Shown: positions 10,144-45,334, counted from the first letter of the stretch. The stretch: DNA of 64,000 nucleotides from an uncultured Clostridium sp. (GCA_964612925.1 CAZTFU010000003.1:23425-87424), one strand, 5' to 3'. The notes: generated by a model from the sequence alone, not told the origin. A program made the numbers and translations.

Positions 10144-12237
10144 CTACTCCCCCGTTCTCGGCAGCAATTCGCGCGGCTCGTGGCCGATATAGCGGAGCAA
10201 AAACACTATTGTGCTGAGCATAAACAGCCCTGCCGCTAAAGCAAATGCGGCTGCGCTTACGGTTGCGTCCGCGCCCACTGTAAGCTCCATATCCACCTCA
10301 CTGCCGCCGATAATATATGCACTGAATGCAAGGAATTCTTCGGGCGTAGCGTTGCTTTCCGTCATTATTTTTTCACCTACGGTCTCGGTAAGCATGTGGC
10401 CGACCGCGCTTCCCGCAAGTGCGCCCACAAGCACTATCAGAACCGCACTTAGCAGTACCGCCGCAAAGCATTTGAGCTTACTGCACCCAAGAAGCCGCAT
10501 CGTGCCGACACAATGCTTCTGCGAATTTGCGTAGAAGAACGCTATCATTATTGTGGCTATCACAAGCAGTGCGCCCGAGAGCACCAACAGAAGCTCCGCC
10601 GTGCCGCTGAGCGCTTCAAGGCTCGGCTGTATGCGGGAATACCCCTGATCATAGAAGGTCAGCTTGATGTCGTAATCGTCGCGGTCGAATATGCCCGTTT
10701 CTTCGGCACTTTCAAGGAAATCATTCACCTTGCCGTTTTCGATCCATATCGTAAGCAGTGTGCCGTTCACAGGGCGCGTTTCCTCCTGAGGGGCGTTTTC
10801 AAGCGACCTTTCGGGAATGTATATCGTGTTCCACGCAACATTCAACGATTCCTGCGATATTTCCGAATTGCCCACTATGGGCTTTGTATCGAATATGCCG
10901 ACTACTTCATACTCCCCGCCGTCAAAGAAGTTGTCGCTTTCGGTATATCTGTACAGCGGTGAAAGCGTTGCATCCTCACCGTGATTATTTGAAAAAAGCT
11001 CGTATTCATAAAACTCAAAATTTATTTTTGTGCCGACTTCCCATCCCTGTTTTTGTGCAAGCTCCGCACTGATAATGCAAACATTCGTTCCGTTTGCAAA
11101 TTCCTCGTCCGTTATGCACCTGCCTTCGCGCATAAAAATGTTGCCCATGTGGAATGCGGGCACGCCCATCATATCATCGAGCGCAACAACGCCGAAGGAG
11201 CGTGCATTTATGTAATATGCGCGGCTTATCTGCTCGTATTTTGCTTTAAGTTCGGGGTCGGACTGCACATCGTCATATTTCATCAGCCAGAACGGGTTTT
11301 CCTCTGTCACATCGCCGTAAGTACTTGCCGATTCACCGTAATAATTGGGATTTGAGTTGTAGGTATAGTATATATCATTGAACAAACAATCGCTGTGAAA
11401 TTTGGGGTGCCCCTGTTTGTACTTTCCGTTTGATGCAATGTACCCGTCGGTGCTGTCAACCGCTCCGACAGTGTTAAAAATCACTCCTATATACTCCACA
11501 CCCGGTTCAAGTCCAAAATAGCCCATTTCTTCATTGTAATTCAGCGCTTCGATCTCATTGGCATATGCCTCGCGTGTCATGCGATACACTTCTTCGCCCG
11601 ATGAGCCACGCAATTCTACGCTAAGATCGACTATCCTTTCCTCATATGAAAAACAATCCGTTGCCGATTCCAAAACCTCAATCAGAATATCCGTTCTAAG
11701 TTTACTGTATGTGCCCAATAAAAAGAATGCATTGTATGAATCCTGCACTATAAATTTTCCGTTATCATCGGTATAGAGTATGGTATCGTTAAAGTCCGCA
11801 TCCTTGCCGCGATTATCCTCGGCATTTATTCTAAAGCGAATAACATCATCTGTAAAAGAGGGATAATTATACGATCTGCTCAGCCTTACATTATCTTCGC
11901 TGTACGCACCGTAGCGGGCACGAAGGTCGTACTTTATAACGCTTGGCGCGGTTGTAAGCGGATAGAAATCATACCCATTCACGGTAAGCGAATGGTAGCC
12001 GCCGTAATTTTCGGACGTGATATCATCCGTTAAATTGCCGCGATTGTCAACGTTTGCATAAAGCTCAACCACGGCAATGGTTGTGTATGTATCCGCCGCA
12101 CGTTCCAAATTGTTTACACTGTTTGTGTAAAGGTTCAAGCTTGTACAAAAAAACGCCGTAAGCAGTGCAAGAATCAATATATACAGCACTATTCGCCCGC
12201 TTTTGCGAAACATCTGCCTTAAATGCATTGATAACAT
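10144..12237 (-). CDS. Orphan FtsX/MacB-type permease with ~520-aa ectodomain (paralogue 1 of 4)
   Basis: 697 aa. One N-terminal TM (RIVLYILILALLTAFFCTSLNLY), a large hydrophilic domain and three C-terminal TMs. FtsX-type motif VGTMRLLGCSK after TM2. Tail EPRELLPRTGE. No NBD is fused or adjacent. Confidence 0.75.
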   Translation of the reverse strand: MLSMHLRQMFRKSGRIVLYILILALLTAFFCTSLNLYTNSVNNLERAADTYTTIAVVELYANVDNRGNLTDDITSENYGGYHSLTVNGYDFYPLTTAPSVIKYDLRARYGAYSEDNVRLSRSYNYPSFTDDVIRFRINAEDNRGKDADFNDTILYTDDNGKFIVQDSYNAFFLLGTYSKLRTDILIEVLESATDCFSYEERIVDLSVELRGSSGEEVYRMTREAYANEIEALNYNEEMGYFGLEPGVEYIGVIFNTVGAVDSTDGYIASNGKYKQGHPKFHSDCLFNDIYYTYNSNPNYYGESASTYGDVTEENPFWLMKYDDVQSDPELKAKYEQISRAYYINARSFGVVALDDMMGVPAFHMGNIFMREGRCITDEEFANGTNVCIISAELAQKQGWEVGTKINFEFYEYELFSNNHGEDATLSPLYRYTESDNFFDGGEYEVVGIFDTKPIVGNSEISQESLNVAWNTIYIPERSLENAPQEETRPVNGTLLTIWIENGKVNDFLESAEETGIFDRDDYDIKLTFYDQGYSRIQPSLEALSGTAELLLVLSGALLVIATIMIAFFYANSQKHCVGTMRLLGCSKLKCFAAVLLSAVLIVLVGALAGSAVGHMLTETVGEKIMTESNATPEEFLAFSAYIIGGSEVDMELTVGADATVSAAAFALAAGLFMLSTIVFLLRYIGHEPRELLPRTGE

Positions 12238-22716: not shown

Positions 22717-22844
22717 GTAAAACCATCGTCCAATCGTCCAATCGTCCAAAATGTAGATATTTAGGCATTTTTTCAGGGTCGATAGCAGGGACGATAGATT
22801 TTATCGACCCTGTTGCGTCCCTTGCCGTCACTCGTTCGTGCACA
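22717..22844. repeat. Left 128-bp inverted repeat (IR-L)
   Basis: gtaaaaccatcgtccaatcgtccaatcgtccaaaatgtagatatttaggcattttttcagggtcgat...gcgtcccttgccgtcactcgttcgtgcaca equals the reverse complement of 24228-24357 with about 10 mismatches. Confidence 0.85.
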
Positions 22845-24021
22845 AAGAGCAGAGTGATTCACTTATCTCCTCCTGCTCTCCATTTATACCCTGTTTTACA
22901 AGCCGCACGCCTCGTATGCCGTTCCTCTTTACTCCGCACTCGGCCTTGAGCGCAAGCTCGCAGCCGTGGCGGGACATGAATGCGTTTATCTCGTTCACAA
23001 GCACTCGCGCCGTGGCGGGTGGTGTGCCGCCGTTCTCCCGTATGCCGTTCATTATGCTTGCATATGAAATGAACACGCTTCTCTCATCATTTGCATTTGC
23101 CGCAAGGCAAAGCGTTATGCCAAGGGGGCTTGTCACCTCATAGGCCGTCTCCTTGTCCTTTATGCGGTCAACGCGCCACAGCCCGTTATCAAACACGAGC
23201 GGCACGTCATCAAAGGCAATATCTCGCCCTACGCCGCTCAATACGGCGTCATTGCCGCCGCGCTTTCGGTCAAGAAGAAGCGTGGTATCCGCCGCGCCCA
23301 TGAGACCTGTAGAGCCCGATACCTTCTCATACGGGTCATCCGTCTGCCTTAGCTTATTTGTGTGGTGAACAAGCACCACCGCAACCGAGTAGCGGCTTGC
23401 AAAGCCCTTGAGAAGCCGCATAAAGCGGTAATCTGCGGCATAGGCGTTCACTCCGCCGCCCGATATGCCGCGTATCACCTGCAGCGTATCTATCACGATA
23501 ACGCTCGGGTTGAGGTGCGCATTATTCTCCTTCACATTCTTGTCAAAGGCGGAAGATAGCCTGTCAAGAAAGCCCTCGTCTATCGTGGGGGACTCGAATA
23601 TGAATGTCAAGTCCGCCGCATCGGCATTCACCGCCCCGCCGCTCAGGCGCATAAGGCGCTTTTTCATGCGGTACGCGCTATCCTCAAGCGCAAAGTACCA
23701 CACGCGGCCTCGCTCTGTCGCCCTGTCGAGAAAGCTCTTTCCCAGTGCGATAGATAGGCACATATCAAGCACAAGCCAGCTTTTGCCTATCTTGCTTGCC
23801 CCGACAAGCAGCGTTACGCCCGGCACGATAAGCCCCTCAACTATCTGCCGTGGCGCTTTGAACGCAAAGCTTGAGAGAGTAAGGGCATTTATACTGCTCT
23901 CAGCGCTTTTGGCAAGCTTTTTGTCAGGCTCGATACCCTCATCGTTTATATCTATGCTGAGGGTACAGCTCTCCTTTTTGTCTTTGCCGTCAGTGGGCAA
24001 AGGAAAAATGTTTTCGTTCAC
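22828..24021 (-). CDS. RecA-fold AAA_25 / RepA-like ATPase (plasmid- or phage-type replicative helicase family)
   Basis: Walker A GASKIGKS, Walker B VIVIDTL, VLVHHTNK. The start is reassigned to GTG at 24021, 7 nt after AAGGAGG. The 459-aa track ORF extends upstream through a terminator and is probably too long. Confidence 0.7.
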   Translation of the reverse strand: MNENIFPLPTDGKDKKESCTLSIDINDEGIEPDKKLAKSAESSINALTLSSFAFKAPRQIVEGLIVPGVTLLVGASKIGKSWLVLDMCLSIALGKSFLDRATERGRVWYFALEDSAYRMKKRLMRLSGGAVNADAADLTFIFESPTIDEGFLDRLSSAFDKNVKENNAHLNPSVIVIDTLQVIRGISGGGVNAYAADYRFMRLLKGFASRYSVAVVLVHHTNKLRQTDDPYEKVSGSTGLMGAADTTLLLDRKRGGNDAVLSGVGRDIAFDDVPLVFDNGLWRVDRIKDKETAYEVTSPLGITLCLAANANDERSVFISYASIMNGIRENGGTPPATARVLVNEINAFMSRHGCELALKAECGVKRNGIRGVRLVKQGINGEQEEISESLCSLCTNE

Positions 24022-24061
24022 AAATGAACCTCCTTGTATAAAAATAGACGGAAAGAGATAT

Positions 24062-24096
24062 AGAAAAAGCCCCTCATCCGCAGTGGATGAAGGGCT
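24062..24096 (-). terminator. Strong terminator-like hairpin inside the 5' leader of the RepA-like gene
   Basis: Minus strand agcccttcatcc-actgc-ggatgaggggct followed by tttttc. It lies between an extended -10 (TGTTATAAT, 24127-24135) and the RBS. Confidence 0.5.
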
Positions 24097-24164
24097 AAAG
24101 GCCATACCTATTATTCCGTCATAAAGATTATAACATGAGCAAAGAGGCATTGCGAGGGCAAAAA

Positions 24165-24240
24165 AATCGCATTTTTTGCGCACAAAATGTGCACGAAATG
24201 GGTGCAAAACGGGTGCAAATTGTGCACGAAATGTGCACGA
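24165..24240 (-). promoter_or_regulatory. Iteron cluster: TTCGTGCACA x3 and TTTGCACCC x2
   Basis: Read on the minus strand: cgTTCGTGCACAtTTCGTGCACAaTTTGCACCCgtTTTGCACCCaTTTCGTGCACA. Confidence 0.55.
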
Positions 24241-30687: not shown

Positions 30688-32811
30688 CTACTCACCCGTC
30701 CTCGGCAGCAGCTCACGCGGCTCGCGGCCGATATAGCGCAGTACAAAGGCAATTGCGCTGAGCATAAACAATCCTGCCGCTAAAGCAAATGCGGCCGTGC
30801 TCACGGTTTTTTCGGCTCCTACGGTGATTTCCATATGAACCTCGTTGCCGCCGATTATATATGCGCTGAATGCAAGGAATTCTTCGGGTGTGGCGTTGCT
30901 TTCCGTCATTATTTCCTCGCCGACATCCTCCGTCAGCATATGACCCGTTATGCTACCCGCAGCGGCTCCCACGAGCACTATCAGTAAGGCACTGAGCAGT
31001 ACCGCCGCAAAGCATTGCGCCTTACTGCACCCAAGAAGGCGCATCGTGCCGACACACTGCTTCTGCGAATTTGCGTAGAAGAAGGCTATCATTATGGTAG
31101 CTATCACAAGCAGTGCGCTTGAAAGTATCAGAAGAAGCTCCGCCGTGCCGCTGAGCGTTTCAAGGCTCGGCTGTATGCGGGAATATCCCTGATCGTAGAA
31201 GGTAATCTTAACATCGTAATCGTCGCGGTCGAAAATGCCCGTTTCTTCCGCACTTTCAAGGAAGTCATTCACCTTGCCGTTCTCGATCCAAAGCGTAAGC
31301 AGTGACCCGCTCACCTGCCGCGTTTCCTCCGCGGGTGCGTTTTCAAGCGATTTCTCGGGAACGTATATCGTGTTCCACGGCACGCTTGCGGCGGCGTATG
31401 AAATTTCCGTATTGCCCACCAACGGTTTCACATCGAATATGCCGACAATTTCATACTCCCCGCCGTCAAAGAATTGGTCTCTTTCCGTATATCTGTACAG
31501 CGGCGCAAGCGTTGTGTCGTTGCCATTCGTTTTGGTAAAATAATCATATTCGTAAAAGTCAAAGCTTATCTTGTCGCCCAAACTCCAGCCCTGCTTTTGT
31601 GCAAGCTCCGCACTTACAATGCAAACATCGGCTCCCGATGCAAACTCCTCATCCGTAATGTTTCGTCCCTCGCGCATATAAATGTTGCCCATGTGGAACG
31701 CGGGCACACCCATCATGTCATCAAGCGCAACAACGCCGAAGGAACGCGCGTTTATATGGTATGCGTAGCTTATCTGCTCATATTTTGCTTTAAGCTCGGG
31801 GTCGGATTGCACATAATCAAACCTTACCAGCCAAAACGGGTTATCTTCGCTCCATCTTTGGTATCGCGTCTCTTCACCCAGTGCCGTAGCCCTATTGGAG
31901 TAAACAAAATAGAGCTCATTAAACAGATAATCGTGATAAAAAGAAAGAGGTGCCCCCTTATATTTTCCGTCGGATGCGATATAAGAGTTGAAGTTATTTT
32001 CATATATTCTGTATAACCTATGTGCGGCGTTCTTAAGTACCCCTATATACTCAACGCCGGGTTCAAGTCCCGCATAACCCTCTTCAAAATTAAAATTTAT
32101 CGATTCAATCTCATCCGCATACTTTTCATACATATGTTTAAGGCGTTCTTCATTGTTCCACCCATAACCATATAGTTCTATGTTAATGCATTGTATTCTG
32201 TCTTCATATGTAAAGCAGTCCGTTGCCGATTCCAAAACGTCAAGCAGAATATCTGTTCGTTTTTCGTTCGTTTGGTAATCAAAATACCCGATTTCGGATA
32301 TTATTTGATCCATGTCCAGTATTCTAAAATTTCCGTTATCGTCGGTATAAAGTGTAATTTTATTAAATTCCGCATCCCTGCCGCTGTTATCCTCTTCATT
32401 TATGCGAAAACGAATAACATCATCTTCAAATGCGGGATAATCTTCATCTCTGTCAAGTCTTATATTTTCTTCGCTGTATGCACCGTAGGTTGCCCGAAGA
32501 TCGTATTTTATAACGTTTGCCGCCGTGGTCAGGGGATAAAAATCATAACCGTTTACCGTAAGTGTATGATAGCCGATGTAATTTTCGGAAAGGATATCGT
32601 CCGTCAGATTGCCGTATTCGTCAGTCTCCGCATACAGCTCCACAACGCCTATTGTTGTATATGTTTCCTCTGCACGTTGCAAATTGTTTATGCTGTTTAC
32701 ATAAAGGTTCAGGCTGGTACAAAAAAACGCCGTCAGCAGCGCAAGAATCAATATATACAGCACTATTCGCCCGCTTTTGCGAAACATCTGCCTGAAATGC
32801 ATGGATAGCAT
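30688..32811 (-). CDS. Orphan FtsX/MacB-type permease (paralogue 2 of 4)
   Basis: 707 aa with the same architecture as 10144-12237. The first 40 aa are nearly identical to that paralogue. VGTMRLLGCSK; tail EPRELLPRTGE. Confidence 0.75.
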   Translation of the reverse strand: MLSMHFRQMFRKSGRIVLYILILALLTAFFCTSLNLYVNSINNLQRAEETYTTIGVVELYAETDEYGNLTDDILSENYIGYHTLTVNGYDFYPLTTAANVIKYDLRATYGAYSEENIRLDRDEDYPAFEDDVIRFRINEEDNSGRDAEFNKITLYTDDNGNFRILDMDQIISEIGYFDYQTNEKRTDILLDVLESATDCFTYEDRIQCINIELYGYGWNNEERLKHMYEKYADEIESINFNFEEGYAGLEPGVEYIGVLKNAAHRLYRIYENNFNSYIASDGKYKGAPLSFYHDYLFNELYFVYSNRATALGEETRYQRWSEDNPFWLVRFDYVQSDPELKAKYEQISYAYHINARSFGVVALDDMMGVPAFHMGNIYMREGRNITDEEFASGADVCIVSAELAQKQGWSLGDKISFDFYEYDYFTKTNGNDTTLAPLYRYTERDQFFDGGEYEIVGIFDVKPLVGNTEISYAAASVPWNTIYVPEKSLENAPAEETRQVSGSLLTLWIENGKVNDFLESAEETGIFDRDDYDVKITFYDQGYSRIQPSLETLSGTAELLLILSSALLVIATIMIAFFYANSQKQCVGTMRLLGCSKAQCFAAVLLSALLIVLVGAAAGSITGHMLTEDVGEEIMTESNATPEEFLAFSAYIIGGNEVHMEITVGAEKTVSTAAFALAAGLFMLSAIAFVLRYIGREPRELLPRTGE

Positions 32812-32851: not shown

Positions 32852-32890
32852 AAAAGGTAAAGCGGGGAAGAGTAGTTTCCTCCCCCGCTT
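32852..32890 (-). terminator. Terminator of the small Cys-rich gene 32902-33219
   Basis: Minus strand agcgggggag-gaaactact-cttccccgct followed by ttacctttt. Confidence 0.65.
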
Positions 32891-33436: not shown

Positions 33437-35515
33437 CTACTCCCCTGCCCGTGGCAACAATTCGCGCGGTTCTTTACGGAGATACCCCACTACGCGGAAT
33501 ATCACGCCGCCCAAGAACAGCACAAGTGCCACTCCGCCTGCGATAAGCGTTACGTTCAGCGTGGCCTCAAGTGCAAACTCCATCTCTACATTTGATGTGT
33601 CGGTAAGGTATGCGCTGAATCCGCGGTATTCCTCGGGCGTGGTGTCGGCATTCGAAACTATGTTCTCTGCCACCTGCTGTGTAAGAGTATGACCTGCATA
33701 TGCACCGATTCCCGTGCCGAGCAATGCTATTATTATTGCTCCGAGCATTACGGCGATAAAGCTCCTTATTTTGCTATTACCGAGCAATCTCATTGTGCCG
33801 ATGCTCTGCTTATTCGCCTGTGCATAGAAGAATGAAAGCAGCAGTGCCGCAATTACAAGCAGTGCGCCCGACAGCAGCAACAACAGCTCCGCAGTGCCGC
33901 TGAGTGCTTCAAGGCTTGGCTGTATGCGCGAATAGCCCTGATCGTAGAATGTAAATTTGGCTTCATAATCGCCTTCTTTGCGGCCTGTGATGCCGTTTTC
34001 CTCCATATACTCGAGGAAGGGCTCTATCTTGCCGTTTTCAAGCCACAGCGTCATAAGTGCGCCCGTGACCTGCCTATCTTCCTCCGCAGGGGCGTTGGGC
34101 ACGGATGCGGCAGGGATGTATATCGTGTTCCACGGCACGCTGAGTGTGGAAAGCGCAACTTCCGAATTGCCTGTTACGGGTCTCACCTTATAAATGCCGA
34201 CTATTTCATATTCGCCGCTGTCAAAGAAGTTGTCAAGCTCCTCGTGGGTGTAATAGGGCGTGAGCGTGTTGGATTCAAGCGTTCCGTTTATGAAATAATC
34301 AAACTCGTAAAAGTCGAAATTTACCTTATCGCCAATCTCCCAACCCTGTGCGGCGGCAAGCTGTGAGTTTATCATGCATACCTTTGCACCGTTTTCATAC
34401 TCCTCCTCGGTTATCATTCGGCCGTCATGTACATACATATGGCCCATGTGGAACGCGGGCACGCCGCTCATATCGTTTGTCGCCATTACAGCGAACGAAT
34501 GTGCGTTTATCTTGTATGCGTTGAATACCTGCTCATATTTTGCAAACAGCTCGGGATCAGCCTCAATGTCGGAATATCTGTGTATCGGGAAAAGCACGTC
34601 CGTTGCCTTTTCTCCGATTTTGGACCACCATTTAATTCTCTCTGCGGTTTCGCCTTCGCCCTGCGAATACCTGAATGTCCAATTGGTGCTGAATACTTCC
34701 TCGTCACCTTGCACGTCATGTATGTTATATCTGCCGTTCGACGCCTTCTGTGTATCGTCACCGTTAAGCGAAACATATCCATATATTACATATTCCGTAT
34801 TCGGCTCAATCACTATGGTATCATATACGCCGCCGCCGTTCAGCGTATCGAGTACCGTATCCACATCCTCGGAATAATTTATGCCGTCGTATACACTTAC
34901 CGTCAAAGACACGTTATTCGAATCATAATCGTATATGTCCGCAGCCGATTCTATAACATGCAAATTGTAGGATCTGTCGCTGAAATGCCCATCAGACCCA
35001 CGCGCTTGATAATACAGAAAAATACGGTAGTTTCCATCGGGAACATATTTGGTATCAACCCAATCCTTATGCTCTTCCTTCTGCGTTTGTTCCTCGGGTA
35101 CGATTTTGAAGCGTATAAAATCTTCCTTGAACAGACGTTCGGTTTTGTTTTTCATTGCGTAATTACCTTCGCTGTATGCGCCGTAACGCGCGCGAAGATC
35201 ATATTTTATAACGCTCGGAGCGTTTACTATGGGCGTAATATCATACCCCTTCACGGTAACGCTGTAGTAGCCCGCATAATCATCCGCCGTAGTAATATCC
35301 TCCACAAGGTTGCCGAAGGAGTCAACGTCCGCATACAGCTCCATTACGGCAATAGTTGTGTAGGTATCCGCCGCAAGGCGAATGTTATGCTGACTGTTGT
35401 TGTACAGGTTCAGGCTCATGCAGAAAAATGCCGTAAGCAGTATCAGCACAAGCACATACAGCAACGTCCGCATGGGTTTACGTATCATTTGCTTCAAAAA
35501 CATAACTACGTGCAT
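33437..35515 (-). CDS. Orphan FtsX/MacB-type permease (paralogue 3 of 4)
   Basis: 692 aa; IGTMRLLGNSK; tail EPRELLPRAGE. The 3' 628 bp are identical to paralogue 4. Confidence 0.75.
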   Translation of the reverse strand: MHVVMFLKQMIRKPMRTLLYVLVLILLTAFFCMSLNLYNNSQHNIRLAADTYTTIAVMELYADVDSFGNLVEDITTADDYAGYYSVTVKGYDITPIVNAPSVIKYDLRARYGAYSEGNYAMKNKTERLFKEDFIRFKIVPEEQTQKEEHKDWVDTKYVPDGNYRIFLYYQARGSDGHFSDRSYNLHVIESAADIYDYDSNNVSLTVSVYDGINYSEDVDTVLDTLNGGGVYDTIVIEPNTEYVIYGYVSLNGDDTQKASNGRYNIHDVQGDEEVFSTNWTFRYSQGEGETAERIKWWSKIGEKATDVLFPIHRYSDIEADPELFAKYEQVFNAYKINAHSFAVMATNDMSGVPAFHMGHMYVHDGRMITEEEYENGAKVCMINSQLAAAQGWEIGDKVNFDFYEFDYFINGTLESNTLTPYYTHEELDNFFDSGEYEIVGIYKVRPVTGNSEVALSTLSVPWNTIYIPAASVPNAPAEEDRQVTGALMTLWLENGKIEPFLEYMEENGITGRKEGDYEAKFTFYDQGYSRIQPSLEALSGTAELLLLLSGALLVIAALLLSFFYAQANKQSIGTMRLLGNSKIRSFIAVMLGAIIIALLGTGIGAYAGHTLTQQVAENIVSNADTTPEEYRGFSAYLTDTSNVEMEFALEATLNVTLIAGGVALVLFLGGVIFRVVGYLRKEPRELLPRAGE

Positions 35516-35702: not shown

Positions 35703-36113
35703 TTAACCTTCCGGCGTCGGTGTTGCCTCAGCTACATCGTCTGCGGCTTCGAGGTCGGCAGTGCCCTCGGGTATGGGGGTTTCGTGGTTGCATGTTATCT
35801 TGCTGTATGTCACTGTGTCCCCGTCAACAGACTCTATTGTCCAACTCGGGTCAGGCGATTCCGTGGGCATATATACCTTCCATATTTTCTTCATATCTTG
35901 TTTTGTACTATCTACCTGACATTGCACAAAGAATGCATCAATATCAAATTTATCACCGGGTTGTCTTGTTTTCTGAGTATTCGGCGTTATTGCGGGTCTT
36001 GGTCTTTCAGTCAACTCAGGCTCCTCTTCTATTGTCTGCGGCTTTGTGCAAGCTGAAAAGGCAAACGCAACTAACAGTACTATAAATAAGAAAAATCTAA
36101 GCTTAGATTTCAT
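35703..36113 (-). CDS. Small lipoprotein, single WKV/TYSK-CxH module
   Basis: 136 aa; lipobox AFSAC; KIWKVYMPTESPDPSWTIESVDGDTVTYSKITCNHE; acidic tail ending TPTPEG. Confidence 0.8.
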   Translation of the reverse strand: MKSKLRFFLFIVLLVAFAFSACTKPQTIEEEPELTERPRPAITPNTQKTRQPGDKFDIDAFFVQCQVDSTKQDMKKIWKVYMPTESPDPSWTIESVDGDTVTYSKITCNHETPIPEGTADLEAADDVAEATPTPEG

Positions 36114-36144
36114 GTGATTCCCTCCTATCTTCGCAATAAGTTCC

Positions 36145-36576
36145 TTACCCTTCGGGCGTCGGTGTTACTTCTGCGGGTTCCTCTGCACCATCTGTCTCGG
36201 CAACGCCCTCAGTCTCCTCGGGATGAAACGCATACGGGTCAGGGGTTTCGTGGTAACATGTTATCTTGCTGTAGATAACAAGGCCATCCTCCTCGGATTC
36301 CACCGTCCAATTTGGGTCGGGTGATTCCGTGGGCATATAAATCTTCCATGTAATCTTAGTATCACGTGCTGTAGTATCCACTTGACACTGCACCCATTCA
36401 CAGTTATAGTCAAATGCTTCGTTTGGCGTCATTGTTTTTTTGGGGCTTGGGGTTATTTTCGGCCGTGAAGTGGGTGTTACGGTTGGTTCTGCCTCCTCAA
36501 CGGGTTTCGCGCAGGCTGAAAAGACAAACGCAAGTACCAGTACTATAAATAATAAGAATCTAATTTTAGATTTCAT
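36145..36576 (-). CDS. Small lipoprotein, single module
   Basis: 143 aa; lipobox VFSAC; ITWKIYMPTESPDPNWTVESEEDGLVIYSKITCYHE; tail ...EVTPTPEG. Confidence 0.8.
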   Translation of the reverse strand: MKSKIRFLLFIVLVLAFVFSACAKPVEEAEPTVTPTSRPKITPSPKKTMTPNEAFDYNCEWVQCQVDTTARDTKITWKIYMPTESPDPNWTVESEEDGLVIYSKITCYHETPDPYAFHPEETEGVAETDGAEEPAEVTPTPEG

Positions 36577-36607
36577 ATGTTTCCCTCCTATCTTCGCAAG
36601 AAGCTCC

Positions 36608-37021
36608 TTACCCTTCGGGCGTTGGTGTTACCTCAGTTACATCGTCTGCGACTTCAATGTCGGCAGTGCCCTCGGGTATGGGGGTTTCGTGGTTGCATGT
36701 TATCTTGCTGTATGTCACTGTGTCCCCGTCAACAGACTCTATTGTCCAACTCGGGTCAGGCGATTCCGTGGGCATATATACCTTCCATGTCTGTTTTGTA
36801 TCGTTACGTGTGTTATCTATCTGACATTTTACAAATTCGTTAACATAACCATACGCATCGCCGGGGTTGTAACTGGGTGTTTTCTTGGGGCTCGGGGTTA
36901 TTTTTGGCCTTGAGGTGGGCGTCACGGTCGGTTCTGCCTCCTCAACGGGTTTCGCGCAGGCGGAAAAGGCGAGCACGAGCAATAACACTATAAATAAGAA
37001 AAACCTAAACTTAGATTTCAT
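36608..37021 (-). CDS. Small lipoprotein, single module (mosaic of its two neighbours)
   Basis: 137 aa. The N-terminal 48 aa resemble 36145-36576. The C-terminal module and tail are nucleotide-identical to 35703-36113 over 130 bp. Confidence 0.8.
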   Translation of the reverse strand: MKSKFRFFLFIVLLLVLAFSACAKPVEEAEPTVTPTSRPKITPSPKKTPSYNPGDAYGYVNEFVKCQIDNTRNDTKQTWKVYMPTESPDPSWTIESVDGDTVTYSKITCNHETPIPEGTADIEVADDVTEVTPTPEG

Positions 37022-37040
37022 ATGTTTCCCTCCTGTTATG

Positions 37041-37075
37041 TTTATTTAATCGAAGGGGGCGTAAGTCTCGCCCCC
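37041..37075 (-). terminator. Terminator of the small Cys-rich gene 37089-37394
   Basis: Minus strand gggggcg-agactta-cgccccc followed by ttcgattaaataaa. Confidence 0.55.
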
Positions 37076-37088
37076 ACTCGATGCACAA

Positions 37089-37394
37089 TTATTTGTGCTT
37101 ACATGTTATTTTGGACTTCAATACGGTATCAGTATATGCAACGCTACAGTTAGGATTGGAACACTCCCACAATTCGTCAACATACCATGTCTGCTTGATA
37201 TCGTTATTCACTTTGGTTATACTGCAATAAACAAGAGTGTTTTTATACCCATACGGGTCAGATACCTCTACACGTTGCATTACGCCATTTTCGCACGCAG
37301 TGCACCCTTCTGCCCTTGCCAAGGCAAGCGCGCCAAATGTTGCAAGCACAATAATTACGCACATCATCAGTGCAAATTTTTGTACACTTCTCAT
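37089..37394 (-). CDS. Exported small Cys-rich protein (family S, member 2)
   Basis: 101 aa. Signal peptide MRSVQKFALMMCVIIVLATFGALALARA|E. C-x2-C...C...W-E-C-x3-C...C-K-H. Confidence 0.75.
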   Translation of the reverse strand: MRSVQKFALMMCVIIVLATFGALALARAEGCTACENGVMQRVEVSDPYGYKNTLVYCSITKVNNDIKQTWYVDELWECSNPNCSVAYTDTVLKSKITCKHK

Positions 37395-37575
37395 AATTTC
37401 TACCTCCGTTTTCTTAAGTTATGTCGTTCGCGGTTGCCCGCTTTACTGCTCGACCCGCCCACATAGACAAAGTGAGCTACTTTGGAAAATGAACCGACCC
37501 CGTCGGTTCGGGGGTATCTTCATTCATGACCATGAATGTTAAGTTAATAGTACCATATATGCCGCTACATGGCAA
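37395..37575 (-). promoter_or_regulatory. Promoter (TTGCCA-17-TACTAT, 37547-37575) plus leader L3
   Basis: Leader contains the 8+8 palindrome cattcatg-gt-catgaatg at the predicted transcript start. It also holds hairpin gaaccgac-ggg-gtcggttc followed by attttcc. Confidence 0.55.
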
Positions 37576-37614
37576 GTCTTTTCTCAATCCCGTTTAATGT
37601 TAATTTTCTTAACA

Positions 37615-38082
37615 TTAAACCTCGGGTGTCGGTGTTACCTCAGTGATCTCCTCTGCGCCCTCAATCTCGGCAGTGCCCTCAGTCTCCTCGGGATGAAACG
37701 CATACGGATCGGGGGTTTCGTGGTCGCATTTTATGCTGCTGTATGTCACTATGTCCCCGTCAACGGACTCTATCGTCCAATTTGGGTCAGGCGTGCCGAT
37801 TGGTTTATATATTTTCCATGTTGTTTTTTCATCGCGTGCAGTTGTATCTATCTCACACTGCAGATACTCATATTCAAAGCCATATCGAACGCCGGGTGTA
37901 GGTTTTGGCGTTACCTTGGGCCCGGGCGTAATTTTAGGTCTTGATGCCGCCGTTACGGCAGGAGTTACGCTTGACTTTGGTGTTGATGAAGGTTCATCCA
38001 CATCAGCAGGCTTTGCACAGGCGGAAAGGACAAGAATAAGCAACAATACTATAGCTACGAAACACCTTGTTTTTTTCTTCAT
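37615..38082 (-). CDS. Small lipoprotein, single module
   Basis: 155 aa; lipobox VLSAC; TTWKIYKPIGTPDPNWTIESVDGDIVTYSSIKCDHE; tail shared with 36145-36576. Confidence 0.8.
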   Translation of the reverse strand: MKKKTRCFVAIVLLLILVLSACAKPADVDEPSSTPKSSVTPAVTAASRPKITPGPKVTPKPTPGVRYGFEYEYLQCEIDTTARDEKTTWKIYKPIGTPDPNWTIESVDGDIVTYSSIKCDHETPDPYAFHPEETEGTAEIEGAEEITEVTPTPEV

Positions 38083-38108
38083 GTTTTTCCCTCCCGTAAT
38101 GTTTGTTT

Positions 38109-38135
38109 AGCGGAGCAGAGATGCTCTGCTCCGCT
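38109..38135. terminator. 12-bp perfect hairpin downstream of 38146-38451 (no clear U-tract)
   Basis: agcggagcagag-atg-ctctgctccgct. Confidence 0.35.
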
Positions 38136-38145
38136 TTCGACATTG

Positions 38146-38451
38146 TCAATGGTTGCAGATTATTTTACTATGCTGTACTCTGCTTTCGGTATACCTGTTA
38201 TTACACTTTGGATTTGAACACTCCCATATTTCATTTACATACCACGTTACCTTAGTGTCATTCTTTAATCCAGTTTTATTGCAATACACCATAGTATAGG
38301 AGTATTCATCTAAATCTTCCGTGCTACTAAGTTGGAAATACCCATTTTCACATACGGTGCATCCGTCAACCCTTGCCAAGGCAAGTGCGCCAAATGTTGC
38401 AAGCACAATAATTACGCACATCATCAGTGCAAATTTTTGTACACTTCTCAT
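38146..38451 (-). CDS. Exported small Cys-rich protein (family S, member 3)
   Basis: 101 aa. Signal peptide identical to member 2. The mature part has diverged but keeps the Cys/His pattern. Confidence 0.75.
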   Translation of the reverse strand: MRSVQKFALMMCVIIVLATFGALALARVDGCTVCENGYFQLSSTEDLDEYSYTMVYCNKTGLKNDTKVTWYVNEIWECSNPKCNNRYTESRVQHSKIICNH

Positions 38452-38633
38452 AATTTCTACCTCCGTTTTCTTAAGTTATGTCGTTCGCGGTTGCCCGCTT
38501 TACTGCTCGACCCGCCCACATAGACAAAGTGAGCTACTTAGGGAAAATGAACCGACCCCGTCGGTTCGGGGGTATCTTCATTCATGGCCATGAATGTTAA
38601 GTAAATAGTACCATATATGCCACTGCATAACAA
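38452..38633 (-). promoter_or_regulatory. Second copy of promoter plus leader L3 (TTGTTA-17-TACTAT)
   Basis: About 97% identical to 37395-37575. Confidence 0.5.
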
Positions 38634-38660
38634 GTTAACAAAATGTTAATTCTTTTGCCG

Positions 38661-39656: not shown

Positions 39657-41747
39657 TTACTCCCCTGCTCGTGGCAGCAGCTCACGCGGTTCTTTACGGA
39701 GATAGCCTACAATGCGGAATATCACTCCGCCCAAGAACAGCACAAGTGCCACTCCGCCTGCGATAAGCGTTACGTTCAGCGTGGCCTCAAGTGCAAACTC
39801 CATCTCTACATTTGATGTGTCGGTAAGGTATGCGCTGAATCCGCGGTATTCCTCGGGCGTGGTGTCGGCATTCGAAACTATGTTCTCTGCCACCTGCTGT
39901 GTAAGAGTATGACCTGCATATGCACCGATTCCCGTGCCGAGCAATGCTATTATTATTGCTCCGAGCATTACGGCGATAAAGCTCCTTATTTTGCTATTAC
40001 CGAGCAATCTCATTGTGCCGATGCTCTGCTTATTCGCCTGTGCATAGAAGAATGAAAGCAGCAGTGCCGCAATTACAAGCAGTGCGCCCGACAGCAGCAA
40101 CAACAGCTCCGCAGTGCCGCTGAGTGCTTCAAGGCTTGGCTGTATGCGCGAATAGCCCTGATCGTAGAATGTAAATTTGGCTTCATAATCGCCTTCTTTG
40201 CGGCCTGTGATGCCGTTTTCCTCCATATACTCGAGGAAGGGCTCTATCTTGCCGTTTTCAAGCCACAGCGTCATAAGTGCGCCCGTGACCTGCCTATCTT
40301 CCTCCGCAGGGGCGTTGGGCACGGATGCGGCAGGGATGTATATCGTGTTCCACGACACGCTGAGCGTGGATATAGCTACCTCGGAATTGCCCGTAACGGG
40401 TCTTGTCTGGTACACGCCCACAATTTCATATTCGCCGCTGTCAAAGAAGTTGTCGGGCTCGGTAAATGTATAATAGGGCCTTAATGTGTTGCCGTATATC
40501 GTGGCGTTGACAAAATAGTCATATTCATAGAAGCTGAAATCTATCTTGTCGCCGACCTTCCAGCGCTGTGCGTTCGCCAAATCCGCGCTTATCATGCAGA
40601 CCTTTGCGCCGCTTTCATACTCTTCCTCGGTTATCATTCGACCGTCTTGCACATACATATTTCCAAGGTGGAATGCAGGCACGCCGTTTACATCGTTTGT
40701 CGCCATCACCGCAAAAGAACGTGTGTTCACTTTGTATGCATAGAATATTTGTTCGTATTTTGCAAGCAGTTCCGGGTCAGCCTCAAGGTCGGAATATTTA
40801 TATACGGGAAAGAGCTGTTCCCCCTCCGTGTGATAGTTACGGTATGCATATTCGCTTTCTCCTGCCGCATATCGATATGACCATTCCACAAAAAAATCAT
40901 CATATTCGTAGGTGATCCAGTCGGGAACATATTTACCGTTTATATTCATTCTTCCCTCGTGATTCGCCTCCTGCGAGATATATCCCGACACAATATATTC
41001 CGTATTCGGTTCTATCACTATGGTGTTATATACTCCGCCGCCGTTAAGCCTATCCAGCGCATCGTTTATATCTTCGGAAAAACTCATCCACTCATACAGG
41101 CGTATTTCAAACACCATATTTCTGTTTTTATATGCATATGCATCCGTTGCGGATTCCACAACATCCAAAATATAATACCGAATCGGAACGGAACCACCGA
41201 TTAGCGGCAAACCGTTTTCCAATTTATACTTATCATTGTCTAAATAGATGCGATAGTTACCGTCATCAATGTACTCGCCAATATCGAACCACGGCTTATC
41301 CTCCTCCGCTTGTTTCTGATTCTCGGGCACTATTTTGAACCGTATTATATCCCGATGAAAAAGCGGCTCCGTTCTGGTTTTATTCAGGGCAATATTATCC
41401 TCGCTGTATGCGCCGTAGCGCGCGCGAAGATCGTATTTTATAACGCTTGGGGCGTTCACTATGGGCGTAAGGTCATAATCATTCACGGTAAGGCTATGAT
41501 AGCCCGCGTAATCCTCTGCCGTGGAAATATCCTCTATAAGGTTGCCGCGGGTGTCAACATCGGCATACAGCTCCATTACGGCAATGGTGGTGTAGGTATC
41601 CGCCGCAAGGCGAATGTTCTGCTGACTGTTGTTGTACAGGTTCAAGCTCATGCAGAAAAATGCCGTAAGCAGTATCAGCACAAGAACGTACAGCAACGTC
41701 CGCATGGGTTTACGAAACATCTGCCTTAAAAACATAACAACGTGCAT
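39657..41747 (-). CDS. Orphan FtsX/MacB-type permease (paralogue 4 of 4)
   Basis: The start is moved to MHVVMFLRQMF (AAGGAGGG 5 nt upstream), which matches the start of paralogue 3. About 696 aa. Confidence 0.75.
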   Translation of the reverse strand: MHVVMFLRQMFRKPMRTLLYVLVLILLTAFFCMSLNLYNNSQQNIRLAADTYTTIAVMELYADVDTRGNLIEDISTAEDYAGYHSLTVNDYDLTPIVNAPSVIKYDLRARYGAYSEDNIALNKTRTEPLFHRDIIRFKIVPENQKQAEEDKPWFDIGEYIDDGNYRIYLDNDKYKLENGLPLIGGSVPIRYYILDVVESATDAYAYKNRNMVFEIRLYEWMSFSEDINDALDRLNGGGVYNTIVIEPNTEYIVSGYISQEANHEGRMNINGKYVPDWITYEYDDFFVEWSYRYAAGESEYAYRNYHTEGEQLFPVYKYSDLEADPELLAKYEQIFYAYKVNTRSFAVMATNDVNGVPAFHLGNMYVQDGRMITEEEYESGAKVCMISADLANAQRWKVGDKIDFSFYEYDYFVNATIYGNTLRPYYTFTEPDNFFDSGEYEIVGVYQTRPVTGNSEVAISTLSVSWNTIYIPAASVPNAPAEEDRQVTGALMTLWLENGKIEPFLEYMEENGITGRKEGDYEAKFTFYDQGYSRIQPSLEALSGTAELLLLLSGALLVIAALLLSFFYAQANKQSIGTMRLLGNSKIRSFIAVMLGAIIIALLGTGIGAYAGHTLTQQVAENIVSNADTTPEEYRGFSAYLTDTSNVEMEFALEATLNVTLIAGGVALVLFLGGVIFRIVGYLRKEPRELLPRAGE

Positions 41748-41784: not shown

Positions 41785-41813
41785 ATATTATCATATACGG
41801 TATATACCGTCAA
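41785..41813 (-). promoter_or_regulatory. Promoter TTGACG-17-TAATAT with an embedded 14-bp perfect palindrome ACGGTATATACCGT
   Basis: Hexamers and palindrome (41796-41809) read directly upstream of permease paralogue 4. Confidence 0.5.
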
Positions 41814-42605: not shown

Positions 42606-42637
42606 TATTAAAAAGGAATGGGGAGCAAAGCTCCCCA
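42606..42637 (-). terminator. Terminator of the small Cys-rich gene 42653-42979
   Basis: tggggagc-ttt-gctcccca followed by ttccttttt on the minus strand. Confidence 0.65.
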
Positions 42638-42652
42638 AATAAACGCGCCGTT

Positions 42653-42979
42653 TTAGCCCGCGTTATGCGGTCCGTGGTCACATATGTATACTTCTTCATA
42701 ACGATATGTCTCGTATTCATAACCACAATCTTTATTGTCGCACTTCCATGTGGTCGTATAGCGATACGTTACAATAGAGTCGGTTGCGCCAACCGTATTA
42801 TTGCAGGGTGTCGGCACGCTCTTGTATTTTGTCTTTACCGTATTCCCCTTTCTTACCGTTCCTTCGTTGCATTCTTCGCACGGTTCACCTCTTGCCGCAA
42901 CAAGCGCAGTAAATGCTGTAAGCACCATAAGCGCACACATCAGCAAGGCAAATGTTTTGACAGTCTTTGTTGATTTCAT
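42653..42979 (-). CDS. Exported small Cys-rich protein (family S, member 4)
   Basis: 108 aa. Signal peptide MKSTKTVKTFALLMCALMVLTAFTALVAAR. C-x2-C...C...W-K-C-x3-C...C-D-H. Confidence 0.75.
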   Translation of the reverse strand: MKSTKTVKTFALLMCALMVLTAFTALVAARGEPCEECNEGTVRKGNTVKTKYKSVPTPCNNTVGATDSIVTYRYTTTWKCDNKDCGYEYETYRYEEVYICDHGPHNAG

Positions 42980-43166
42980 TTTTCTTCCTCCTTTAATAAG
43001 TTTGTCCTTCTGCGGTCAAATCCGCAGATACAGCCCCATCGCCGCAGGCGTTTCTGCCCACCCGATTCAAGGGGGAATAGCCGACTTTCATCGGTACAAC
43101 AACACATTCGCGCCAAATTATGGCAGGAACTGATTTTATATTATCATACGCAGTATGCGCTGTCAA
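42980..43166 (-). promoter_or_regulatory. Promoter (TTGACA-17-TAATAT, 43138-43166) plus ~150-nt leader L2
   Basis: Leader hairpins ccgat-gaaa-gtcgg (GNRA loop) and ctgcgg-atttga-ccgcag, then RBS AAAGGAGG. Confidence 0.55.
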
Positions 43167-43201
43167 CGGTTTTTTGGCTGTGAAGCGGTCTGTTTTCGCC
43201 C

Positions 43202-44747: not shown

Positions 44748-44778
44748 ATAAACACAAAAGGGAGCATAGCTCCCCTTT
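44748..44778 (-). terminator. Terminator of the small Cys-rich gene 44793-45122
   Basis: aaggggagc-tat-gctccctttt followed by gtgtttatt on the minus strand. Confidence 0.6.
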
Positions 44779-44792
44779 GCCTACTTTAGTTG

Positions 44793-45122
44793 CTATTTAT
44801 CGTAGCCACTGTCTCTGTCATGGCCGCATGAACGAACCGTCTCTGTAGAGGTTCTGGTATAAGCAACCTCACCACAGCTTCTGCACGCCCAGTACTTAGT
44901 AACACGGTAATCTGTCAACACATCCGAATAAATCGGATTAACACTGCATATTACTACCCTGCTGCTAACAAATTCTCTGGTCGTGTCAGAAGAAAGAACC
45001 ACTTGGCCGCCACATGACTCACATCGCTCTGCCCTTGCCGCAACAAGCGCAGTAAATGCTGTAAGCACCATAAGCGCACACATCAGCAAGGCAAATGTTT
45101 TGACAGTCTTTGTTGATTTCAT
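44793..45122 (-). CDS. Exported small Cys-rich protein (family S, member 5)
   Basis: 109 aa. Signal peptide identical to member 4. Mature part: C-x2-C...C...W-A-C-x2-C...C-G-H. Confidence 0.75.
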   Translation of the reverse strand: MKSTKTVKTFALLMCALMVLTAFTALVAARAERCESCGGQVVLSSDTTREFVSSRVVICSVNPIYSDVLTDYRVTKYWACRSCGEVAYTRTSTETVRSCGHDRDSGYDK

Positions 45123-45309
45123 TTTTCTTCCTCCTTTAATAAGTTTGTCCTTCTGCGGTCAAATCCGCAGATACAGCCCCATCGCCGCAGGCGTTTCTGC
45201 CCACCCGATTCAAGGGGGAATAGCCGACTTTCATCGGTACAACAACACATTCGCGCCAAATTATGGCAGGAACTGATTTTATATTATCATACGCAGTATG
45301 CGCTGTCAA
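45123..45309 (-). promoter_or_regulatory. Second, identical copy of promoter plus leader L2
   Basis: 100% identical to 42980-43166, as part of the 279-bp identity block 45034-45312. Confidence 0.55.
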
Positions 45310-45334
45310 CGGGTTTTTGGCCGTAAAGCAGTAT

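Follow-up and report, generated by a model that had tools for sequence, protein, structure and literature searches.

A cysteine/histidine module in tethered and soluble exported proteins encoded beside MacB/FtsX-type permeases of a Clostridium relative

Why should one bacterium encode, gene beside gene, membrane-anchored lipoproteins and free secreted proteins that appear to carry the same cysteine/histidine module? The question is raised by positions 35703-38451 of a 64,000-nucleotide (nt) stretch of DNA from an uncultured Clostridium sp. (GCA_964612925.1 CAZTFU010000003.1:23425-87424), the whole of which we call the window. This interval holds the genes of four lipoproteins with one module each and of two small proteins, and lies within a dense minus-strand cluster of module genes and permeases that runs from 45122 to 29818. 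We propose that the module proteins are a new extracytoplasmic partner family, tethered or free, of an ATP-binding cassette (ABC) machine of type VII, and that the module holds a metal site; we put the chances of this proposal at about even. We infer the partnership, the metal and the end function alike. Genes of the window are named by their coordinate, preceded by L for lipoproteins with a lipobox and by S for secreted proteins of ~100 amino acids (aa) with six Cys. L001-L023 are loci of relatives, and P numbers (P0006, P0017, P0053 etc.) are family proteins of those relatives.

Type VII ABC machines (FtsEX, LolCDE, MacB, YbbAP) are understood through their outside partners. To our knowledge, most Gram-positive members of the type have no known partner. 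The finding offers a genomically defined candidate partner family in tethered and free forms, together with a predicted structure, a four-residue site and a permease whose hypervariable ectodomain recombines. If both the partnership and the metal site are true, the module would be a new small metal-stapled extracellular fold from strict anaerobes, and it would open a tractable route to what an 'orphan' MacB-like permease does. The narrow lineage limits the general impact.

The module in its tethered and soluble forms

All ten lipoproteins have a lipobox, defined as a signal peptide ending [LVI][ASTVI][GAS]-C (Lgt/Lsp substrates); by pattern inspection this is FSAC, LSAC, LSSC, LVSC or MFAC at residues 17-36. 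The count of 23 modules in ten proteins, one to four in each, which the original prediction had given, is exact (3+3+1+1+1+1+4+3+3+3), and every one of these modules is bounded by a first Cys and by C-x(1-4)-H. The long motif that had been described for the first module fits eleven copies, here termed type A, with exactly 43 residues between the Cys (A1 consensus CxVDxTxxDTKxTWKVYSPTESPDPSWTVESVDGDxVTYSKIxCDH); the twelve type B copies are looser. The type B hidden Markov model (HMM) matches ten of the eleven A modules at p 3e-11 to 1.4e-8 and module 4 of L38661 at p 2e-3, and the A and B profiles align with 96 % probability and E 3e-9 in hhalign. By these profile comparisons, the early and late lipoprotein modules are clearly homologous. 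Across lineages module A is 59-65 % identical, while the permeases of those organisms are ~50 % identical; module A is therefore under purifying selection.

The small proteins are encoded by five minus-strand open reading frames (ORFs) of ~100 aa with A-x-A signal peptides and six Cys in the mature part. Their N-terminal C-x(1,2)-C, noticed earlier, is present in all 17 S proteins, as is a second knuckle. This second knuckle had been written W-x-C-x2/3-C and must be corrected to C-x2-C or C-x4-C. The lipoprotein closest to small protein S37089 (37089-37394, minus strand) is L36608 (36608-37021, minus strand). The two share exactly 24 identical positions, the number that had been estimated, and their alignment scores 106 against 24.6 +/- 4.7 in 5000 shuffles, none of which reached 106 (BLASTP E 4e-15). 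Recent gene conversion was considered as the source of this likeness and rejected, as the shared DNA is 53 % identical and the codon is the same at 11 of the 24 identical residues. With DNA identity at this level and few shared codons, the similarity is therefore kept at the protein level.

All five small proteins had been said to align to the module. This held for S37089 and S38146 (type A HMM p 1.7e-9 and 4e-7) and failed as a direct match for the other three (p 0.004-0.3), which are connected to module A transitively, through the S family. The mature parts of this family are coherent beyond the Cys positions (z 5.5-11.4 against fixed-Cys shuffles). An intermediate group, made up of S37089, S38146 and P0008, is tied to the remaining S proteins by a score of 38 bits (z 10), and S37089 bridges the S family and lipoprotein module A. 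With the group included and in the full-length register, the S and L profiles match at P 2.9e-4. The pattern C-x7-D(-x-K) … C-x-H is common to all classes; S proteins of other lineages (P0010, P0016, P0017) again show C-x7-D-x-K and, ahead of Cys3, P-Y-G-like residues. The same gene slot, upstream of paralogous permeases, is taken by a lipoprotein or by a soluble form. The intermediate group, the recurrent C-x7-D(-x-K) and the shared gene position argue for common descent of all classes. Judged from the sequences, the observation of a shared module is real and goes beyond chance.

The module had been called unrecognised, and Pfam, NCBIfam and PADLOC gave no consistent match for any of the 41 family members. 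Against PDB sequences, profiles of the module families returned nothing below E 0.2. In Foldseek searches with whole models, signal-peptide helix included, the lowest E values were 0.14 in PDB and 0.33 in BFVD, and the top matches (E 0.14, LptE-like; E 0.32, PDB; E 0.33, BFVD) are noise. No zinc-ribbon profile came above threshold (Zn_ribbon_3 at E 0.46; Zn_ribbon_Top1 at E 0.0011 in one of 17 members), and a rubrerythrin-like domain model was sub-threshold at 22.4 bits (cutoff 32). The S family comprises 18 clusters among 5.8 billion proteins and the L family, searched by full-length alignment, 15 clusters in the same index; exhaustive HMMER of 1.84 billion representatives gave 24 L matches, of which ~14 are real. 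The 54-column module-A alignment is too short for word-indexed search and retrieved nothing, although the collection contains the lipoproteins of the window; it is the full-length alignment and exhaustive HMMER that recover the family. The module is unclassified, and its family is tiny and limited to a few uncultured gut Clostridia.

Confident AlphaFold2 models were obtained for L43202 (predicted local distance difference test score, pLDDT, 89.1; 24 sequences) and S37089 (pLDDT 83.8; 17 sequences). In the lipoprotein model one four-strand unit is seen three times. Each unit is predicted to run from strand 1 through a Cys and a seven-residue loop to strand 2, which starts with the conserved Asp; a crossover follows, for which modules 1, 2 and 3 are modelled with a Pro-rich loop, a helix and a long loop, respectively. 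Strands 3 and 4, joined by a Gly turn, come next, and the unit ends with Cys, x(1-4) and His. The S37089 model has an additional N-terminal C-x2-C and an additional strand, and then an element like that of the lipoproteins (strand, Cys, loop of seven, strand starting N-D-x-K). After it comes a single long hairpin (64-78/86-97) with the second knuckle, C-x4-C, in the turn at its tip, which ends in strand, Cys, x and His. As modelled, the two forms match around each conserved Cys; their middle parts differ, the lipoproteins having a loop and an extra hairpin there. The proposal of one fold in tethered and soluble forms thus survives in part: homology through the intermediate group, the shared motif, the common slot and the matching strands at both Cys support it, and the differing middle parts do not.

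A candidate partnership with a MacB/FtsX-type permease

What could such proteins be for? The permease at 33437-35515 (minus strand) matches Pfam MacB_PCD (28.0 bits, cutoff 27) and FtsX (27.6 bits, cutoff 25.5), and precomputed annotations assign the permeases of relatives to the same families. It is built of an N-terminal transmembrane (TM) helix, a ~500-aa ectodomain and three C-terminal helices; a PDB-sequence search with the permease profile gave no match. The four permeases of the window, ~700 aa each, are paralogues (46-77 % identical to permease 33437). A module gene lies directly upstream of every permease examined, both in the window (L12311 before permease 10144, S32902 before 30688, L35703 before 33437 and L41847 before 39657) and in those loci of relatives that are long enough to show both genes (L001-L005, L009-L012, L014-L023). 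This link between module and permease, which is absent from the original prediction, is the main added value of the analysis.

The arrangement recurs in several forms. In a Christensenellaceae metagenome-assembled genome and related metagenome contigs, an S gene, a 701-aa permease and a TetR gene follow one another in two unrelated neighbourhoods, and in another lineage the single-module lipoprotein P0053 occupies the slot before the permease. Between P0053 and a zf_Tbcl gene, an uncalled S-like ORF with a truncated signal peptide (L009:9666-9930; …CPQC…C-x7-D…WECSNANC…YIECDH) is probably a decaying S gene. At L013 the lipoprotein P0032 is followed by an S-type gene (786-1088). In one relative (L017/L018) the upstream lipoprotein gene is frameshifted, and an intact single-module gene (P0033) lies downstream of the permease; at L017:4981-5809 this three-module lipoprotein is split over two reading frames, through a frameshift or an assembly error, and the gene call covers only its C-terminal 128 aa (P0037). 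The relative is syntenic with the window (copper ATPase … PNPase, acetate kinase), and the 15-kb cluster is replaced in it by the frameshifted three-module lipoprotein, the one permease and the single-module lipoprotein. Since this relative has one permease unit only, the array of the window is a lineage-specific expansion. A linkage to the copper ATPase was also considered and was judged coincidental: it occurs only in the close relatives of the window, and in other lineages the unit follows GlmS or Rnf or lies elsewhere.

A complete operon with an ATPase is found at loci L014-L016. In GCA_016293375.1 the lipoprotein P0035 is followed by a 690-aa permease ~50 % identical to those of the window, a 419-aa second FtsX permease of the four-TM type and a 222-aa ATPase whose top models are LolD (2.9e-55), the Lcn972-group ABC (1.4e-53), MacB and FtsE, all under curated cutoffs. 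Before this operon, L015:3557-7465 encodes a LytS/LytTR two-component pair, an extracytoplasmic function (ECF) sigma factor and a protein of 289 aa that is hydrophobic in a central stretch and may be an anti-sigma factor, and L014:7268-7579 carries a LytTR fragment; these are candidate regulators of the complete operon.

Type VII ABC systems act via a dedicated extracytoplasmic partner (PMC12646458; PMC5985334), and our reading of the module proteins as partners follows this rule. As in FtsEX-EnvC/PcsB, LolCDE-LolA, MacAB-TolC and YbbAP-TesA, the permease here has an FtsX domain and a MacB-like core ectodomain, the operon of one relative adds a second FtsX permease and a LolD/MacB/FtsE-type ATPase, and the small exported protein is encoded beside the permease, as for known partners (PMC12646458, PMC5985334). 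The present family differs in being new and unrelated to EnvC, PcsB, LolA, MacA or TesA, in the ~500-aa ectodomain with its hypervariable block of ~190 aa, in the lack of an adjacent ATPase at most loci, window included, and in its host, a Gram-positive-type Clostridium relative. LolCDE is a close parallel in that one relative combines two different FtsX-type permeases (N-terminal TM helix and C-terminal FtsX domain) with a LolD-like ATPase, and the associated protein is a lipoprotein. However, the ATPase scores 187.2 bits against a LolD cutoff of 307.75 and is no LolD equivalog, the permeases of the complete-operon relative match no NCBIfam model in the LolC/LolE equivalog test, neither an outer membrane nor LolA is expected in this lineage, and a soluble non-lipoprotein can fill the lipoprotein slot. 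The export of STII by MacB offers another parallel, in which a MacB-type machine takes charge, outside the membrane, of a small Cys-rich protein that Sec has delivered (PMC5985334); STII shows no sequence relationship to the present proteins and requires MacA-TolC and an outer membrane, whereas the small protein here is encoded in cis and has tethered homologues.

We propose that module proteins would serve as dedicated extracytoplasmic partners, either docking cofactors or handled cargo, of a type VII 'mechanotransmission' machine. Candidate end roles would be the release or hand-over of tethered proteins, envelope maintenance or defence.

Parts of the permease and of the S proteins are hypervariable between strains. 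Two strains whose flanking genes match at 97-100 % identity have no more than 15-35 % identity in the mature part of S and in residues ~117-307 of the permease. Every permease pair examined has this hypervariable ectodomain block of ~190 aa (15-40 % identity), even where the remainder is 95-100 % identical, and in some pairs the remaining ~230 residues are 100 % identical. The block lies at 34595-35167 of the window in permease 33437 and is found also in permeases 39657, 30688 and 10144 and in L001/L002, L009/L012 and L019/L021. The breakpoints at which the block recombines occur independently of the S or L gene that lies upstream. A strict co-variation of S allele and permease block was considered and rejected, as P0017 occurs with two very different blocks and so does the lipoprotein P0053.

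Variation among the paralogous S genes of the window is also patchy. Their 200 nt of upstream sequence and their signal-peptide DNA are 96-100 % identical over most of the length, the mature-coding part 40-60 %, with an abrupt fall of identity in the mature part (upstream pairs 37394-37594 versus 38451-38651 and 42979-43179 versus 45122-45322). L36608 and L35703 show the reverse, with 3' parts 85-100 % identical and 5' parts divergent. The pattern points to mosaic gene conversion among window paralogues. A comparison of the window S genes, P0006-P0018 and L013:786-1088 shows that the signal-peptide residues …MVL..F.A.A.A[RV]… are kept across lineages with mature parts <35 % identical; this conservation may exceed the needs of Sec targeting and reflect a sequence-specific role or a DNA-level constraint. 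Promoter-like extended -10 sites precede three S genes and one permease (45281-45309, 43138-43166, 37547-37575, 41785-41813, minus strand), three of them reading TTGACA-17-TAATAT and the S37089 site TTGCCA-17-TACTAT. Terminator-like G+C-rich hairpins with T tails follow three S genes (44754-44780, 42619-42637, 32860-32890, minus strand). The number of promoters in the window is not above that in shuffles; the number of terminators is (38 versus 16.2 +/- 4.2). It may be that the S genes are strongly expressed as units, with transcription reading through into the gene that follows.

A broader reading, which we regard as improbable, is that metal-stapled ligands serve a modular type VII ABC machine. 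Several interchangeable large permeases would share one second permease and one ATPase encoded elsewhere, each large subunit would have a recombining hypervariable block in its ectodomain and a module protein of its own, tethered or soluble, and the variable parts would mediate strain-level recognition or antagonism among gut Christensenellales-like bacteria. If true, this would be a new kind of polymorphic cell-surface system.

A possible metal site and competing explanations

What holds the module together? The pattern of conserved residues makes a metal site plausible, with Cys, Asp/His, Cys and His as its ligands. C-x-H occurs after Cys3 (as C-x-H-G) or after Cys6 in 17 of 17 S proteins and in two further S-type ORFs, P0005 and P0017 being among the few S proteins with His near both. 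A His that stands beside Cys3 or Cys6 and is never absent suggests that these two Cys may be neighbours that need a His. The Asp at +8 from the first Cys is near-invariant, and module 2 of L43202 has His there. In three lipoproteins C-Q-L-C stands at the start of the third module. The Cys count of the mature lipoproteins is frequently odd, 7 or 9, as is seldom the case in proteins rich in disulfides, and the relatives' loci include anaerobe genes (Rnf, PFOR, rubrerythrin, HydE/F/G-type).

Taken together, the module has 45-65 residues and four predicted beta strands: one invariant Cys follows strand 1, an Asp (rarely His) stands ~8 residues later at the start of strand 2, and a second invariant Cys at or just past the end of strand 4 has a His within one to four residues. 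Lipid-anchored members carry one to four such modules; soluble members are read as carrying one divergent module with two additions, C-x(1,2)-C at the N-terminal side and C-x(2,4)-C in a hairpin. The Cys/Asp/Cys/His cluster would be a structural metal site, most likely for zinc, which in an anaerobic and reducing habitat would staple strand 1 to strand 4 at their ends, and the four additional Cys of the soluble forms would be a second, zinc-ribbon-like site. In their motifs the S proteins resemble zinc ribbons and rubredoxin knuckles: one C-x(1,2)-C lies close to the N-terminus, and a C-x(2,4)-C marks the tip of a predicted beta-hairpin. Both knuckles are absent from the lipoprotein modules, however, and the universal set is Cys/Asp/Cys/His; the present proteins are exported, and zinc-ribbon models match single members at E >= 0.001 only.

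Several results weigh against the proposed partner family and its metal site. With the S37089 group removed, the link between S and L profiles falls to P 0.014-0.05, and HMM scores of S against L rarely exceed those of fixed-Cys shuffles; the direct link is weak outside that group. By tblastn, neither the window nor the other loci outside L014-L016 hold a second permease or matching ATPase, so that an active ABC machine there is assumed, and gene adjacency by itself is no proof of partnership. The distance from the second Cys to its His is not constant (x1, x3 or x4), a looser arrangement than a metal site of fixed geometry would suggest, and a Cys pair that brackets a module is also the classic disulfide layout. 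This last point leads to a possible, though rather unlikely, alternative in which architecture and partnership are as proposed and the Cys pairs form structural disulfides, one in each module and three in each small protein, with no metal and another role for His and Asp. Invariant Cys bracket every module, an arrangement shared with many extracellular modules that disulfides staple; the Cys count of the small proteins, six, is even; and the known MacB cargo STII is itself a Sec-exported, disulfide-bonded small protein (PMC5985334). Disulfides fit less well with the anaerobe gene content of related loci, the frequent odd Cys counts of mature lipoproteins (7 or 9), a His that moves between Cys3 and Cys6 and is never absent, the interchange of Asp and His at +8, and the C-x2-C added at the same site in some modules. 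The weak profile link would also suit the view that S and L modules are not one fold, the S37089 group being a mosaic with lipoprotein-derived segments and C…C-x-H convergent. The differing predicted middle parts and the gene conversion active among paralogues speak for it. We think it very unlikely, given the recurrence of C-x7-D-x-K and the P-Y-G-like residues in P0010, P0016 and P0017, the 38 bits (z 10) that tie the S37089 group to the rest of the S family, the mere 53 % identity of the DNA in the shared segments and the presence of both forms in the same gene slot.

The partnership itself can be questioned in two further ways. The gene order of a small Sec-signal protein and then a ~700-aa membrane protein, followed in one relative by an ABC ATPase, mirrors that of Lcn972 loci (PMC11796350, PMC4055356), where a bacteriocin is encoded with a large membrane protein and an ABC ATPase. 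The small proteins might thus be diffusible toxins, and the permease (with an ATPase elsewhere) and lipoproteins might give self-immunity, for example as decoys. The likeness extends to a small beta-rich product before a membrane protein of 650-700 aa and to the ATPase of the relative, for which the Lcn972-group ABC model is the second-best match (1.4e-53). A toxin would also be in keeping with the conservation of promoter and signal peptide ahead of a hypervariable mature S region, with the promoter-like sites and terminator-like hairpins that the S genes themselves have, and with the multi-copy expansion in the window. But the small proteins match no Lcn972 model, the permease reaches 12.9 bits against TIGR01654 (cutoff 189.35), neither Lcn972 nor TIGR01654 is matched above noise, and the ATPase resembles TIGR03608 at 181.4 bits for a cutoff of 254.85. 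The small proteins are Cys-rich, and all S and L proteins are acidic (S pI, isoelectric point, 4.2-5.7); lipoprotein-only loci without an S gene exist, the complete operon included. That S allele P0017 and lipoprotein P0053 each occur with two differing permease blocks argues against cognate specificity in the block, and such independent assortment weakens the toxin-immunity model, which we consider quite unlikely. Hypervariability could also mean that the products are variable surface or secreted antigens, adhesins or phage-receptor decoys, linked to the permease by shared surface exposure and diversifying selection and forming no complex. S mature domains and the ~190-aa permease block that differ between strains with 97-100 % identical flanks, the independent recombination of the two and the mosaic gene conversion among paralogues are in keeping with this. 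The tight same-strand adjacency is, however, kept across lineages whose permeases are ~50 % identical and where the surrounding genes are unrelated, module A of the lipoproteins shows strong conservation, and a scan of viral contigs for the permease found no homologue, so we give the antigen explanation very little weight.

Module genes, permeases and neighbours in the window

All genes described here lie on the minus strand. In order of transcription the cluster begins with S44793 (44793-45122; small secreted protein, 109 aa), which adjoins a copper P-type ATPase gene and has a promoter-like site upstream and a terminator-like hairpin downstream. There follow L43967 (43967-44725; three modules), L43202 (43202-43936; 244 aa, three modules), S42653 (42653-42979; small secreted protein, 108 aa) and L41847 (41847-42590; 247 aa, three modules, the third opening C-Q-L-C), the last directly upstream of permease 39657 (39657-41747). 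This MacB_PCD+FtsX paralogue, of 696 aa counted from ATG, has the hypervariable ectodomain block and no ATPase gene nearby.

The middle part of the cluster is transcribed in the order L38661, S38146, L37615, S37089, L36608, L36145, L35703, permease 33437. L38661 (38661-39581; 306 aa) has four modules in the order A-B-B-A. The small secreted protein S38146 (38146-38451; 101 aa) is identical to S37089, likewise of 101 aa, over the first 27 residues, the signal peptide, and the mature parts have diverged; the six Cys of S37089 lie in its mature part (nt 37095-37304). Each of the other lipoproteins has one type-A module: L37615 (37615-38082; 155 aa) at nt 37720-37857, L36608 (137 aa) at nt 36689-36826, L36145 (36145-36576; 143 aa) at nt 36250-36387 and L35703 (35703-36113; 136 aa) at nt 35784-35921. 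The exact sequence of L35703, the protein encoded directly upstream of permease 33437, is present, nameless, in a public protein collection. Permease 33437 is a MacB_PCD+FtsX paralogue of 692 aa with the hypervariable block at residues ~117-307 (nt ~34595-35167).

An acidic low-complexity C-terminal tail is found in the single-module lipoproteins and in four-module L38661 (35703-35780, 36145-36249, 36608-36688, 37615-37719 and 38661-38744). The terminal motif is conserved as T-P-T-P-E-G, the ending of L35703, with the variants T-P-A-P-E-G in L38661 and T-P-T-P-E-V in L37615; lipoproteins of relatives end in similar tails (…TPAVTPEG, …APEN, …PAGE).

The cluster closes with S32902, permease 30688 and L29818. 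S32902 (32902-33213; 103 aa) has an N-terminal C-x-C and C-I-H-G at Cys3, and lies directly upstream of permease 30688 (30688-32811; MacB_PCD+FtsX paralogue, 707 aa) with a terminator-like hairpin between them; L29818 (29818-30633; 271 aa, three modules) is downstream of this permease. Away from the main cluster, L12311 (12311-13093; 260 aa, three modules) and, directly downstream, permease 10144 (10144-12237; 697 aa), the fourth paralogue, form a separate pair. Elsewhere in the window, among housekeeping genes, a 459-aa ORF (22828-24207) has the P-loop-like motif GASKIGKS and may be a mobile-element remnant.

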